The position numbers and the translations under genes are program-made. The notes beneath the pieces are model-generated. The model was not told the origin of the DNA. It did not search any database and saw only the letters and a program-made list of their open reading frames with translations. Shown here piece by piece: positions 2,343-58,458 of a stretch of DNA of 64,000 bases. Numbering within the stretch: the first letter of the stretch is position 1; each line of letters begins with the position of its first letter. Source of the stretch: Escherichia phage vB_EcoM-CHD94UKE2; sequence record MZ234031.1; one strand, written 5' to 3'.

Positions 2343-2969
2343 ATGTATGAATACAAATTTGATGTGAGAGTTGGTTCTAAAATAATCAATTGTCGCGCAT
2401 TCACGCTTAAAGAATATCTAGAACTTATTACTGCCAAAAATAATGGTTCCGTAGAAGTAATTGTTAAAAAGCTAATCAAAGACTGCACAAATGCAAAAGA
2501 TTTAAACCGCCAAGAATCAGAACTACTGCTGATTCATTTATGGGCACATTCTCTCGGCGAAGTTAATCACGAAAACTCCTGGAAGTGCACCTGTGGAACT
2601 GAAATACCAACCCATATAAATCTATTACATACACAAATAGATGCATCAGAAGACCTCTGGTATACACTGGGTGACATTAAAATTAAATTCCGATACCCTA
2701 AAATTTTTGATGATAAAAATATAGCCCACATGATAGTATCATGCATAGAAACGATTCATGCTAACGGGGAAAGCATTCCAGTTGAAGACTTAAATGAAAA
2801 GGAACTAGAAGATTTATATTCTATCATCACAGAGTCAGATATTGTAGCTATAAAAGATATGCTTTTAAAACCTACCGTTTATTTGGCTGTTCCAATTAAG
2901 TGTCCAGAGTGTGGAAAAACCCATGCTCACGTAATAAGAGGCCTCAAAGAGTTCTTTGAGTTACTATAA
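2343..2969 (+). CDS. 26: baseplate hub subunit gp26
   Basis: 208 aa (T4 gp26 208 aa); divergent from gene 51 across bidirectional late promoter. Confidence 0.85.
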
Positions 2970-3367
2970 TGGCAAATATTAATAAGCTTTATTCTGATAT
3001 TGACCCGGAAATGAAAATGGATTGGAACAAAGATGTTTCCAGATCACTTGGATTAAGGTCAATTAAAAACAGTCTTTTGGGAATTATTACAACAAGAAAA
3101 GGTTCAAGACCGTTTGACCCTGAATTTGGATGTGATTTATCAGACCAGCTTTTTGAAAATATGACTCCTCTTACTGCTGACACAGTTGAGCGCAATATTG
3201 AAAGCGCAGTAAGAAACTATGAGCCACGTATTGATAAATTATCAGTTAATGTGATACCAGTTTATGATGATTATACTCTGATAGTAGAAATACGCTTTTC
3301 GGTCATCGATAACCCTGATGATATTGAGCAGATAAAACTGCAACTGGCTTCGAGTAATAGGGTATAA
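2969..3367 (+). CDS. 25: baseplate wedge subunit gp25
   Basis: 132 aa, [19 protein letters not shown]...; TAATG overlap with gene 26; matches T4 gp25 size. Confidence 0.9.
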   Translation: MANINKLYSDIDPEMKMDWNKDVSRSLGLRSIKNSLLGIITTRKGSRPFDPEFGCDLSDQLFENMTPLTADTVERNIESAVRNYEPRIDKLSVNVIPVYDDYTLIVEIRFSVIDNPDDIEQIKLQLASSNRV

Positions 3368-3393
3368 TGCTTCACGTATAAACGTGGTATAAT
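3366..3393 (+). promoter_or_regulatory. middle (MotA-dependent) promoter for uvsY
   Basis: MotA box AATGCTTCA (3366-3374) with TGGTATAAT -10 at 3388-3393. Confidence 0.65.
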
Positions 3394-3433
3394 GAATCTA
3401 AGTCCATCCAATAACAATTGAATAGAGAACAAT

Positions 3434-3847
3434 ATGAAATTAGAAGATCTTCAAGAAGAATTGAAGAAAGATGTGTTTATAGATTCGACTAAATTACAGT
3501 ATGAAGCAGCTAATAATGTGATGTTATATAGTAAATGGCTTAATAAGCATTCAAGTATTAAAAAGGAAATGCTTAGAATTGACGCACAGAAAAAAGTTGC
3601 TCTTAAAGCTAGATTAGACTACTACTCGGGACGAGGAGATGGTGATGAATTTAGTATGGATCGTTACGAGAAATCAGAAATGAAGACAGTTCTATCAGCT
3701 GATAAGGATGTTTTAAAGGTTGATACTTCATTACAATATTGGGGAATTTTATTAGATTTCTGTAGCGGAGCTCTTGATGCTATCAAATCACGCGGATTTG
3801 CTATTAAGCATATTCAAGACATGCGGGCATTTGAGGCTGGAAAATAA
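3434..3847 (+). CDS. uvsY: recombination mediator protein UvsY
   Basis: 137 aa, MKLEDLQEELKKDVFIDSTKLQYEAANNVMLYSKWLNKH...; near-identical to remembered T4 UvsY (137 aa). Confidence 0.95.
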   Translation: MKLEDLQEELKKDVFIDSTKLQYEAANNVMLYSKWLNKHSSIKKEMLRIDAQKKVALKARLDYYSGRGDGDEFSMDRYEKSEMKTVLSADKDVLKVDTSLQYWGILLDFCSGALDAIKSRGFAIKHIQDMRAFEAGK

Positions 3848-4071
3848 TGAGATATAGCATTGATGATGCTTTTAATTATGAAGAAGAATTTGAAACGGAA
3901 ATTCAATTCTTAATGAAAAAGCATAATCTTAAGCGTCAGGATATTCGTATCCTGGCCGACCACCCGTGTGGTGAAGATGTCCTTTATATTAAAGGAAAAT
4001 TTGCTGGATATCTTGATGAATATTTTTATTCTAAAGATATGGGCATTGATATGCATATGAGAGCTGTATAA
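3847..4071 (+). CDS. hypothetical protein (T4 uvsY.-1-like position)
   Basis: 74 aa ORF, ATG overlapping uvsY stop (TAATG). Confidence 0.6.
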   Translation: MRYSIDDAFNYEEEFETEIQFLMKKHNLKRQDIRILADHPCGEDVLYIKGKFAGYLDEYFYSKDMGIDMHMRAV

Positions 4072-54123: not shown

Positions 54124-54486
54124 ATGAAAGCATATCAAATTCTTGAAGGCACGCATAAAGGTACTATTTATTTTGAAGATGGTATTCAAGCACGAATTAT
54201 TGTCTCTAAAACTTTTAAAGAGGACTCTTTTGTAGACCCAGAAATTTTCTATGGTTTGCATGCCCGTGAAATTGAAATTGAACCACAGCCTACGGTTAAA
54301 ATTGAAGGTGGTCAACACCTGAACGTTAACGTTCTGCGTCGCGAAACTCTGGAAGATGCAGTTAAGCATCCGGAAAAATATCCGCAGCTGACCATCCGTG
54401 TATCCGGTTATGCAGTTCGCTTTAACTCTCTGACTCCGGAACAGCAGCGCGACGTTATCGCTCGTACCTTTACTGAGAGTCTGTAA
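54124..54486 (+). CDS. autonomous glycyl radical cofactor GrcA/YfiD-like protein
   Basis: C-terminal glycyl-radical signature ...[29 protein letters not shown]; 3' half has host-like codon usage. Confidence 0.85.
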
Positions 54487-54707
54487 TGGCAAAGATAATT
54501 ATTGAAGGTTCTGAAGATGTGCTAAATGCTTTCGCCGAGTGGTTTAGTAATTCAGGCGAACAGCAATTTAATGAAGCGTGGAACATGGGTGATATTAATG
54601 GAATTTATCCTACGACAGAAATTTCTGTTCAGGGATATGGCATTCATGAACCTATTCGTTTAGTTGAATATGATTTGGGTACTGGTGAGGAAGTAAAATA
54701 TGATTGA
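54486..54707 (+). CDS. hypothetical protein
   Basis: 73 aa; TAATG coupling. Confidence 0.55.
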   Translation: MAKIIIEGSEDVLNAFAEWFSNSGEQQFNEAWNMGDINGIYPTTEISVQGYGIHEPIRLVEYDLGTGEEVKYD

Positions 54708-55303: not shown

Positions 55304-55765
55304 ATGACTATCAACACAGAAGTTTTTATCCGTCGAAATAAGCTCCGTCGTCACTTTGAGTCGGAGTTTCGTCAAATTAACAATGAGATTCGTGAGGCAT
55401 CAAAAGCAGCAGGGGTCTCATCGTTTCATCTAAAATATTCTCAACATCTTCTTGATCGTGCAATTCAACGGGAGATTGATGAGACATATGTTTTTGAATT
55501 ATTCCATAAAATAAAAGACCATGTTTTAGAAGTTAATGAATTCCTAAGTATGCCTCCGCGTCCTGACATTAATGAGGATTTTATTGATGGGGTTGAATAT
55601 CGTCCTGGGCGTTTAGAAATCACCGATGGAAATCTTTGGCTTGGATTTACAGTTTGTAAACCTAACGAGAAGTTCAAAGACCCGTCACTTCAGTGCAGGA
55701 TGGCAATTATCAACAGTCGTCGTTTACCGGGAAAGGCTTCTAAAGCAGTAATTAAAACTCAATGA
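55304..55765 (+). CDS. regB: RegB site-specific endoribonuclease
   Basis: 153 aa, MTINTEVFIRRNKLRRHFESEFRQINNEIREASKAAG...; matches remembered T4 RegB; early promoter upstream. Confidence 0.85.
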   Translation: MTINTEVFIRRNKLRRHFESEFRQINNEIREASKAAGVSSFHLKYSQHLLDRAIQREIDETYVFELFHKIKDHVLEVNEFLSMPPRPDINEDFIDGVEYRPGRLEITDGNLWLGFTVCKPNEKFKDPSLQCRMAIINSRRLPGKASKAVIKTQ

Positions 55766-55772
55766 GGTAAGC

Positions 55773-56318
55773 ATGAGAAAAGCACTACTCGCTGGTCTAT
55801 TGGCCATTTCAATGATGGCACATAGCTCCGAGCATACTTTCAGTAATGTCCAACTCGATAACATGCGTTACGCGTATCAATTCGGGGAACAATTTTCTAA
55901 GGATGGAAAATATAAAACACATAAAAATATCCACAAGAGCGGATTAGGTCATATAATGGCTGCTATTTTATGGCAAGAAAGCTCTGCCGGAGTTAATTTA
56001 AAATCTAAACCAAAGCATCATGCCTATGGAATGTTCCAAAATTATTTGCCGACAATGCGAGCAAGAGTTAAGGAACTTGGTTATAATATGACCGATGCTG
56101 AAATAAAAAGAATGTTGAATAAACGGTCCAATTCAGCTTCCTGGGCGTACATTGAACTTTCTTATTGGTTAAATATACATAAGGGTGATATAAGAAAGGC
56201 AATATCCTCTTATAATTCGGGATGGAATGTTAAAGCAGGTTCTAAATATGCTTCTGAAGTCCTAGAAAAGGCTAACTACCTTAAAAATAATAAACTACTG
56301 GAAATAGTAAATGACTAA
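55773..56318 (+). CDS. secreted lytic transglycosylase-like protein
   Basis: N-terminal signal peptide MRKALLAGLLAISMMAHS; SLT-like motifs ILWQESS, AYGMFQ, SYNSG. Confidence 0.7.
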   Translation: MRKALLAGLLAISMMAHSSEHTFSNVQLDNMRYAYQFGEQFSKDGKYKTHKNIHKSGLGHIMAAILWQESSAGVNLKSKPKHHAYGMFQNYLPTMRARVKELGYNMTDAEIKRMLNKRSNSASWAYIELSYWLNIHKGDIRKAISSYNSGWNVKAGSKYASEVLEKANYLKNNKLLEIVND

Positions 56319-56652
56319 AATTTTGGTTTTATGTATAGGATTAATTTCATTTTCTGCGTTAGCAAATACATCATATACTGAAATTAGAGAGTATGTAAAC
56401 CGTACTGCCGCGGATTATTGCGGGAAAAATAAAGCATGCCAAGCTGAATTTGCGCAGAAATTAATATATGCATATAAAGACGGAGAAAGAGATAAATCAA
56501 GCAGATACAAAAATGATACTTTATTAAAACGATATGCTAAAAAGTGGAATACCTTAGAATGTTCAGTTGCGGAGGAGAAAGATAAAGCCGCTTGTCATTC
56601 AATGGTTGACCGTTTGGTAGATTCTTATAATCGAGGATTGAGTACTAGATGA
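56311..56652 (+). CDS. secreted hypothetical protein
   Basis: 113 aa; signal peptide MTKILVLCIGLISFSALA; four Cys. Confidence 0.6.
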   Translation: MTKILVLCIGLISFSALANTSYTEIREYVNRTAADYCGKNKACQAEFAQKLIYAYKDGERDKSSRYKNDTLLKRYAKKWNTLECSVAEEKDKAACHSMVDRLVDSYNRGLSTR

Positions 56653-57128
56653 TTGTAAAATATATCAAGGGCGATATTGTCGCCCTATTTCTTCAAGGTA
56701 ATATTATTGCGCATGGGTGCAACTGCTTTCATACTATGGGTTCAGGTGTAGCAGGTCAATTAGCAAGGGCCTATCCTAAAATTTTAGAAATAGATAAAAC
56801 CACTACTGAGTACGGTTCTCGTGATAAATTAGGTGATATGTCTATTGTTTTTAAACATAATCCTACAGGATTTGGTATATGCTATAACCTGTATACACAA
56901 TACGAACCAGGTCCTAATCTTGATTATGGTGCTTTAGTAAACTGCATGATAGAATTAAATCTACAGGCAGAAACCCTTTTGTTTAAACCAGTAATTTACA
57001 TTCCACGCATAGGTTGTGGTATTGCTGGCGGTGATTGGGATAAGGTTTCTAAATTAATCGACATGTTTACTCCTGATATTGATTTAATAGTGGTGGATTA
57101 TGAAAGCACATTACCCGCATCCGTTTGA
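56649..57128 (+). CDS. macro-domain-like protein (putative ADP-ribose binding/processing)
   Basis: 159 aa; macro-like motifs KGDI, GNIIAHGCNCFHTMGSGVAGQ, IPRIGCGIAGGDW. Confidence 0.65.
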   Translation: MIVKYIKGDIVALFLQGNIIAHGCNCFHTMGSGVAGQLARAYPKILEIDKTTTEYGSRDKLGDMSIVFKHNPTGFGICYNLYTQYEPGPNLDYGALVNCMIELNLQAETLLFKPVIYIPRIGCGIAGGDWDKVSKLIDMFTPDIDLIVVDYESTLPASV

Positions 57129-57312
57129 TCCTAAAAACAAAGTGGAAATTATTCGTCAATGGGAACGCATTTGCCGTACTAAATGCCCAATTAATAGTCC
57201 ACATGATGTAGATAAAGACTATATTGGAACATTCGTTGAATATACCTTTATTGATAAGAAAGGTCGTAAACAGCATGTAGAAGAATATTGCTTAAAGGTT
57301 ACATGGTTATGA
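57100..57312 (+). CDS. hypothetical protein
   Basis: 70 aa; ATG start overlapping previous ORF. Confidence 0.5.
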   Translation: MKAHYPHPFDPKNKVEIIRQWERICRTKCPINSPHDVDKDYIGTFVEYTFIDKKGRKQHVEEYCLKVTWL

Positions 57313-57515
57313 GCCAAATTAGCATTCTTAAAAATGCACATTGTGAAAAGTGTAAACGGCCAGTTGTTTTTGCTTTATGCAATGATGAAATGGCTTGTGA
57401 TTTCGATTATTGGTGCTATTGCTCTAATAAAGGATGCATTAATCATAAAGGTGAAGGATTTTATTCAGGATTTTATCCTTATCCCGATTTTGTTAAAGAA
57501 GGTAAACCAAAATGA
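57309..57515 (+). CDS. Cys-rich small protein (putative zinc-binding)
   Basis: track start TTG 57288; ATG 57309 in ATGA junction; 68 aa with CEKC...C...C...CYC...C. Confidence 0.5.
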   Translation: MSQISILKNAHCEKCKRPVVFALCNDEMACDFDYWCYCSNKGCINHKGEGFYSGFYPYPDFVKEGKPK

Positions 57516-57685
57516 ATAGTTCTGAGTTACAATATGAAGTGTTACGTGAGCTTGATAATTTAATTGAACTCGCTGTTAATAAAGGTTTTGCCATCGGAAT
57601 TGGTCAAAAAGATACTGATCATTTAACTATGGAAATATTTAAGCAAAAGCGAATTATTTTAAAACTTCTGGAAATTAATATATGA
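57512..57685 (+). CDS. small hypothetical protein (57 aa)
   Basis: ATGA junctions on both sides; below ORF-track cutoff. Confidence 0.4.
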   Translation: MNSSELQYEVLRELDNLIELAVNKGFAIGIGQKDTDHLTMEIFKQKRIILKLLEINI

Positions 57686-57867
57686 GTCTGAGTAAAGAAC
57701 AAAAAGATAAATTGTTTGAGCTTATCCATGAACTTCTAGATGAGCATACAGAAGCAAACACCTTTTATGATGAATACGGCCCGCTATCTCCCGAACACCA
57801 GGAAGAATTTGCTGATCGGTTTGATAAGAAAGAAAACGAATTAATAGCTTATGTGAATACGCTTTAA
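57682..57867 (+). CDS. small helical protein (small-paralog family)
   Basis: 61 aa, MSLSKEQKDKLFELIHELL... Confidence 0.55.
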   Translation: MSLSKEQKDKLFELIHELLDEHTEANTFYDEYGPLSPEHQEEFADRFDKKENELIAYVNTL

Positions 57868-57876
57868 GAAGGTGAT

Positions 57877-58458
57877 ATGGCGAGTTTAATTTTTACTTAT
57901 GCAGCAATGAATGCTGGAAAATCTGCTTCTCTTTTGACTGCTGCGCATAATTATAAAGAACGTGGAATGAGTGTATTAGTTCTTAAGCCTGCTATTGATA
58001 CTCGCGATTCTGTCTGTGAAGTCGTTTCTCGCATTGGAATTAAGCAGGAAGCGAATATTATTACGGATGATATGGATATTTTTGAGTTCTATAAATGGGC
58101 TGAAGCACAAAAAGATATTCATTGTGTATTTGTAGATGAAGCTCAGTTTTTAAAAACTGAACAGGTGCATCAATTAAGCCGAATTGTCGATACATATAAT
58201 GTTCCTGTTATGGCTTATGGATTAAGGACTGATTTCGCTGGAAAATTATTTGAAGGTTCTAAAGAACTTTTGGCGATTGCAGATAAACTTATTGAACTAA
58301 AAGCAGTTTGTCATTGTGGTAAAAAAGCTATTATGACAGCTCGATTAATGGAAGATGGAACACCAGTTAAAGAAGGTAATCAAATCTGTATTGGTGATGA
58401 AATTTATGTTTCTTTGTGTAGAAAACATTGGAATGAATTAACTAAAAAGCTCGGTTAG
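57877..58458 (+). CDS. tk: thymidine kinase
   Basis: 193 aa; P-loop AAMNAGKSAS; C-terminal CHCGKK...CRKH zinc ribbon; matches T4 Tk. Confidence 0.97.
   Translation: MASLIFTYAAMNAGKSASLLTAAHNYKERGMSVLVLKPAIDTRDSVCEVVSRIGIKQEANIITDDMDIFEFYKWAEAQKDIHCVFVDEAQFLKTEQVHQLSRIVDTYNVPVMAYGLRTDFAGKLFEGSKELLAIADKLIELKAVCHCGKKAIMTARLMEDGTPVKEGNQICIGDEIYVSLCRKHWNELTKKLG

Follow-up and report, generated by a model that had tools for sequence, protein, structure and literature searches.

The open reading frame at 56649..57128 (+ strand) of the genome stretch of Escherichia phage vB_EcoM-CHD94UKE2 analysed here (sequence record MZ234031.1; 64,000 nucleotides, referred to below as the window) is the positional orthologue, and a strongly diverged allele, of the T4 gene tk.4 (adfM). 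Its product is a stand-alone, single-domain macro protein that belongs to the ALC1-like class. By analogy with characterised relatives, this protein probably takes the role of T4 tk.4 and would remove the ADP-ribose that the toxin DarT2 attaches to thymidine in phage single-stranded DNA (ssDNA), in a manner like that of SCO6735. The gene is already known, having been annotated in T4 for years as A1pp (macro), and an anti-DarTG2 role was reported for it in 2025.

Genetic context of the macro-domain gene

An initial annotation had placed a macro-domain-like protein in the interval between regB and tk, and an ATG-to-stop reading frame of 159 amino acids (aa), recognised by its matches to Pfam Macro and T4 Tk.4, was found at exactly the coordinates and on the strand given above, with regB (55304–55765) upstream and tk (57877–58458) downstream. 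The vs reading frame (56311..56652) lies directly upstream, and because its stop codon overlaps the start codon of the macro-domain gene in an ATGA sequence (56649..56652, + strand), translational coupling of the two genes in one transcription unit is suggested. The 3′ end of the macro-domain gene overlaps the start of tk.3 by 29 nt (57100..57128, + strand), whereas the corresponding tk.4/tk.3 overlap in T4 is 4 nt.

The order of genes in this part of the window (vs.6, vs.5, vs.4, vs.3, regB, vs.1, vs, the macro-domain gene, tk.3, small open reading frames, tk, rI.1, rI and rI.-1) was matched gene by gene to that of T4 (NC_000866), and the macro-domain gene therefore occupies the tk.4 position between vs and tk.3. 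Its product shares 58% aa sequence identity over 155 aa with T4 Tk.4 (NP_049723; E value 1e-70), which is found in the same position and belongs to the same fold family. The first 14 residues of the two proteins are identical, and the window protein has four extra residues at the C-terminus (159 aa compared with 155 aa in T4).

A 3.2 kb stretch that includes the macro-domain gene was 100% identical to the sequence of Escherichia phage vB_EcoM-G3F7, and 95–99% identical to sequences in several hundred Tequatrovirus records. The RefSeq label of T4 tk.4 is 'phosphatase; Tk.4; contains A1pp phosphatase motif', where A1pp is an older name for the macro domain, and in other records the gene is labelled 'hypothetical protein', 'phosphatase' or 'macro domain-containing protein'.

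A perfect 8 bp hairpin, rich in GC and with a T-rich run after it, was observed at 56668–56686, within codons 7–13 of the macro-domain reading frame, and is labelled 'terminator' in MT682709. It is located where the sequence is 100% identical to that of T4, and divergence from T4 starts just within the 3′ end of the hairpin (56677). As a terminator it was not significant, with a fold z-score of –1.26 and a terminator-like count of 4 compared with 2.5 ± 1.8 in shuffled sequences. A promoter scan also revealed no enrichment (15 sites compared with 17.4 expected). Upstream of regB, the vs.5 homologue is a single 73 aa open reading frame (54486–54707), but the 58 aa Vs.5 protein of T4 matched this region in two different reading frames, residues 1–17 at 54486–54536 and residues 17–58 at 54535–54660, which indicates a frameshift difference between this phage and T4.

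Macro-domain fold

The proposal that the product is a macro-domain protein was supported by similarity far beyond that expected by chance. The protein matched Pfam Macro (PF01661) with an E value of 5.8e-08 and a score of 33.1 bits, compared with a gathering cutoff of 22, over profile positions 2–117 of 118, and also matched PHROG 335 (1.6e-71). When the single protein was used to search PDB sequences, BT1257 was retrieved (1.6e-10), followed by yeast Poa1p, SCO6735, DarG and TARG1. A search of PDB sequences with a family profile of 56 sequences recovered the same set, with values of 2.9e-19 for BT1257, 5e-17 for TARG1, 2e-15 for SCO6735, 6e-15 for Poa1p and 1e-11 for DarG.

An AlphaFold2 model, generated on the family alignment with the T4 row left out, had a mean pLDDT of 94.7 and a pTM of 0.89, and displayed the three-layer alpha/beta/alpha macro fold. 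A Foldseek comparison of this model with the PDB returned TARG1, Poa1p, BT1257 and DarG, each with a probability of 1.00 and a TM score of 0.7–0.8. Fold prediction, which had been named as the check on the macro-domain assignment, thus returned macro folds. The model was structurally nearer to the ALC1-like class (TARG1, DarG, Poa1p and SCO6735) than to the MacroD, viral, PARG or macroH2A classes, and the protein was assigned to the ALC1-like class from these profile, AlphaFold2 and Foldseek matches.

Active-site residues

Two motifs that had been likened to the ADP-ribose-binding loops of macro domains are both present in the window protein, and correspond to the two loops, as they align with those of TARG1, DarG, SCO6735 and BT1257. 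Loop 1 (residues 17–37, GNIIAHGCNCFHTMGSGVAGQ; 56697..56759, + strand) was defined using the family alignment, a residue census and alignment with characterised enzymes, and loop 2, which is the diphosphate-binding loop (residues 118–130, IPRIGCGIAGGDW; 57000..57038, + strand), using alignment with characterised enzymes. An NLYTQ motif (residues 80–84; 56886..56900, + strand), identified from the family census and column equivalence, is located between them.

The census covered 57 family members sharing 38–79% identity with the window protein. Six loop 1 residues, H22, G23, N25, C26, G33 and A35, were invariant, as were D49, N80, Y82, P119, G122, G124, W130 and Gln84, the last of these present in 57/57 members. 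T4 Tk.4 shares the family invariants H22, N25, N80, Y82, Q84, G122, G124 and W130. However, the loop 2 sequence in the window protein is that of the family consensus (IGCGIAGGDW), whereas it is altered in T4 (IGAGIGKGNW).

Equivalent residues in the characterised enzymes were obtained from one joint alignment that included TARG1 and PhiKZ gp104, with the residues of SCO6735 recovered through BT1257, and those of the Thermus aquaticus (5m31) and Mycobacterium tuberculosis (5m3i) DarG proteins recovered from the PDB using a Haliscomenobacter DarG as a bridge. The residue at position 84 is Gln in the window protein, T4 Tk.4, BT1257 and SCO6735 (the essential Gln85 of SCO6735), whereas it is the catalytic Lys84 in TARG1 and Lys in PhiKZ gp104 and the DarGs (the catalytic Lys80 of DarG). 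Asn is found at position 25 in the window protein, T4 Tk.4, BT1257, SCO6735 (Asn27), the DarGs and gp104, with Ser in TARG1. At positions 122 and 124, Gly is shared by the window protein, T4 Tk.4, SCO6735 (Gly126 and Gly128), TARG1 and the DarGs, and gp104 has Gly at 122 and Ala at 124. Position 126 is Ala in the window protein, BT1257 and SCO6735, Gly in T4 Tk.4, the DarGs and gp104, and the catalytic Asp125 in TARG1.

As Gln84 occupies the column of DarG Lys80 and TARG1 Lys84, as does the Gln in SCO6735 and BT1257, the window protein and T4 Tk.4 are predicted from sequence to be Gln-type macro enzymes of the SCO6735/BT1257 subclass. Other features of SCO6735 found in the window protein are N25, the equivalent of the Asn27 that locks the Gln in place, and the glycines G122 and G124. 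However, the extended mobile loop of SCO6735 with Lys89 and Lys94, and its Lys34, were not found in the window protein in the alignment. SCO6735 (PDB 5e3b) and BT1257 (2afc/2fg1) share 26–27% identity with the window protein, in which the loop after the Gln is 5–6 residues shorter than that of SCO6735 and lacks both Lys89 and Lys94, Lys34 is replaced by Ser32, and Val25 is replaced by Gly23. C26, D49 and Y82, which are invariant in the Tk.4 family, are missing in SCO6735. As the window protein lacks both DNA-binding lysines (K34 and K89), the DNA-binding mode of SCO6735 is not directly transferable.

SCO6735, a Gln-type enzyme, cleaves thymidine-linked ADP-ribose off ssDNA, and rescues both E. 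coli and Streptomyces from DarT (PMC9411070). Its activity is lost in a Q85A mutant and almost all lost in an N27S mutant, and from molecular dynamics simulation and mutagenesis a water-mediated catalysis, in which the Gln positions the distal ribose, was proposed (PMC9411070). The role proposed for Val25 is via its backbone.

Relationship to DarG and PhiKZ gp104

DarG was the sole PADLOC model that matched the window protein. However, membership of the DarG family was ruled out. The score against the NCBIfam DarG model (NF048014) was 27.8 bits, compared with a cutoff of 250, over profile positions 2–142 of 338, whereas a true DarG from Haliscomenobacter scored 415.7 bits. The catalytic Lys80 of the DarG macrodomain (5m31 and 5m3i) is replaced by Gln84 in the window protein, DarG has Asn in place of His22, and the C-terminal DarT-binding domain of DarG, its second domain, is absent. 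No darT (DUF4433) gene was found beside the macro-domain gene, where the neighbours are vs and tk.3.

The DarT-linked relative on the Haliscomenobacter hydrossis plasmid pHALHY02 was rejected as a Tk.4-type protein, as it is a true Lys-type DarG. The plasmid carries a complete DarT-DarG operon (2360–4065 of the stretch examined), which scored 218.8 bits for DarT and 415.7 bits for DarG on NCBIfam equivalog models. The RefSeq labels of the two genes do not go beyond 'DUF4433 domain-containing protein' and 'macro domain-containing protein'. The nearest named bacterial homologue, from Pelagimonas (40% identity), is encoded by a solitary gene, and neither a toxin gene nor darT was found nearby. 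A homologue with 43% identity to the window protein was also encoded by the E. coli 'plasmid' CP057073 (137.6 kb), where it sits among 16 consecutive genes annotated just as 'hypothetical protein', a context uninformative on function. It may be that CP057073 is not a conventional plasmid but a phage or a phage-plasmid.

PhiKZ gp104, also a stand-alone phage macrodomain that counters DarTG2, removes DarT2-made ADP-ribose from DNA in vitro (Cell Rep 2026; PMC13309987), whereas the evidence for T4 Tk.4 is genetic. The two proteins share the name AdfM, which was given independently to gp104 (PMC13309987) and to T4 Tk.4 (bioRxiv 10.1101/2025.11.20.689424). However, gp104 is DarG-type, with an FPTK lysine and a VNVVGVMG loop 1, and BLASTP detected just a 33-residue local match (E value 0.001) between gp104 and the window protein, ruling out equivalence with the PhiKZ AdfM. 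On the basis of these sequence differences, the two AdfM proteins are non-orthologous and represent separate recruitments from different macro subclasses.

Allele replacement and distribution

The macro-domain gene represents an allele swap with sharp boundaries, within a backbone sharing ~97% identity with T4, as the protein shares 58% identity with T4 Tk.4 and those encoded by flanking genes share 93–100% with their T4 counterparts (regB, 99%; vs.1, 99%; vs, 96.5%; tk.3, 93%; tk, 99.5%). Nucleotide identity to T4, calculated from a pairwise MAFFT alignment over windows of 60 columns, was ~97% up to position 56676, 43–80% over 56677–57138 and 88–98% over 57139–57318. Together with the per-gene protein identities, this defines the extent of the replacement as 56677..57138, without reference to strand. 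Within the protein, identity to T4 Tk.4 was 84% for residues 1–50, 34% for residues 51–79 and 24% for residues 131–155, and the differences, which affect 42% of positions, are mostly in the latter two segments.

Relatives of the macro protein were found in 2,777 phage records from many host genera. The window allele is common, as it was present at ≥90% identity in 312 phage records. The T4-type allele was found at ≥90% identity in 224 records, and a further type, 80–90% identical to T4, in 159 records. Hence, at least three allele classes co-occur among T4-like phages.

A second block that diverges from T4 (57319–57876; <50% nucleotide identity) begins ~200 nt downstream of the macro-domain gene. 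T4 carries tk.2 and tk.1 in this region, whereas the window has three small open reading frames instead. These encode a Cys-rich protein of 68 aa (ATG at 57309; phrog_2306), a protein of 57 aa (57512–57685; phrog_3452) and one of 61 aa (57682–57867; phrog_653) with 54% identity to T4 Tk.2. No match to T4 tk.1 was found among the small open reading frames between the macro-domain gene and tk.

Predicted function

T4 lacking both of its anti-DarTG1 factors, AdfA and AdfN, remains resistant to DarTG2, and a further factor was predicted in 2024 (PMC11257639). In a HIDEN-SEQ study, the only transposon hit obtained on a host with DarTG2 was tk.4, and a clean knock-out of tk.4 sensitised T4 to DarTG2; the likeness of the product to the DarG macrodomain was noted, the gene was named adfM, and de-ADP-ribosylation of DNA was proposed (bioRxiv 10.1101/2025.11.20.689424). 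The 58%-identical allele in the window would be expected to have the same activity and target as these relatives. The suggestion in the initial annotation that a macro-domain hydrolase could reverse or sense ADP-ribosylation in host defence holds in outline, the gene itself being the known tk.4/adfM.

The macro-domain gene would be expressed along with the neighbouring regB, vs and tk genes, and its product would bind the ADP-ribose put by the host toxin DarT2 on thymidine in phage ssDNA. ADP-ribose would be gripped by loop 1 (H22 and N25) and loop 2 (G122–G128), and Gln84, positioned by Asn25, would hold the distal ribose. Cleavage of the N-glycosidic bond by water would then release the ADP-ribose and restore a replicable template, and it is by this template repair that the phage would escape the abortive defence of DarTG2.

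An alternative is that the protein acts as an ADP-ribose-1″-phosphate phosphatase, or degrades small soluble ADP-ribose derivatives such as RNA-repair by-products and NAD-derived immune signals or toxins, and does not act on DNA adducts. An argument for this is available (PMC9503650), and the invariant H22 aligns with His23 of Poa1p. The equivalent of Poa1p Ser30, at position 29, is Thr in 35/57 family members and otherwise variable. However, the match to Poa1p is strong just in the N-terminal 80 residues, as the C-terminal half of the yeast protein (6lfq), which is ~20 residues longer than the window protein and has a small molecule from tRNA splicing as its substrate, aligns poorly. This alternative is unlikely, given also that the 'phosphatase' label reflects the old domain name and not an assay, that the T4 orthologue has a specific DarTG2 phenotype, and that the Gln/Asn/Gly constellation is that of the DNA-acting SCO6735. 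The reasoning in the initial annotation, by which the protein would have proteins as its main or second target, either undoing the action of a host ADP-ribosyltransferase or tuning the marks made by the phage enzymes Alt, ModA and ModB, is highly unlikely to hold. SCO6735 and TARG1 do also hydrolyse protein-linked (Glu/Asp) ADP-ribose, but nothing in the genetics of tk.4 points in this direction, and DarG, a close structural match, acts on DNA only. The residue modified by Alt, ModA and ModB is arginine, and the ALC1-like macro class is not known to cleave this linkage.

Protection might instead be mainly non-catalytic, in that the protein could attach to DarT2 itself and block it, or serve as a sensor or sponge that binds the adduct. 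The catalytically dead Q85A form of SCO6735 still inhibits DarT in vitro, and more strongly than dead DarG or TARG1 (PMC9411070), and the much greater variability of the macro-domain gene relative to its neighbours would follow from direct protein–protein contact with a variable toxin. However, the residues of the catalytic pocket are all invariant across the census, a pattern characteristic of enzymes, and with the DarT-binding domain of DarG also missing, this explanation has a very low probability. A specificity shifted from that of T4 Tk.4, towards another DarT variant, another modified base or RNA-linked ADP-ribose, such that the window allele may not protect against the DarTG2 tested, appears very unlikely. 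It could be reconciled with the low identity of this gene amid a highly conserved backbone, the allele classes among T4-like phages and the departure of T4 loop 2 from the consensus kept here. However, the two alleles do not differ at the residues equivalent to the substrate-contact residues of SCO6735, and mosaic gene exchange among T-even genera, of which the second replaced block may be another instance, can yield such blocks with function unchanged.

Removal of DarT2-made ADP-ribose from phage DNA is thus the preferred reading. In a broader scenario, considered rather unlikely, the Tk.4-type proteins, as Gln-type enzymes recruited independently of the PhiKZ AdfM, would owe the fast turnover of their alleles either to a direct protein–protein arms race with DarT2 variants, involving inhibition of the kind seen with dead SCO6735, or to substrate shifts between allele classes. 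If substrate shifts were responsible, different alleles would protect against different DarT-like toxins.

Implications

The macro-domain gene is of little weight as a discovery, and the additions made here to what was known of tk.4 are modest, namely the Gln-type assignment, the clash in the AdfM name and the sharply bounded allele replacement. The name AdfM now covers two unrelated macro subclasses. A firmer functional label can be given to the gene in records where it is called 'hypothetical protein' or 'phosphatase', and the T-even AdfM, which is without the catalytic lysine of DarG and TARG1, would be better modelled on SCO6735 instead.
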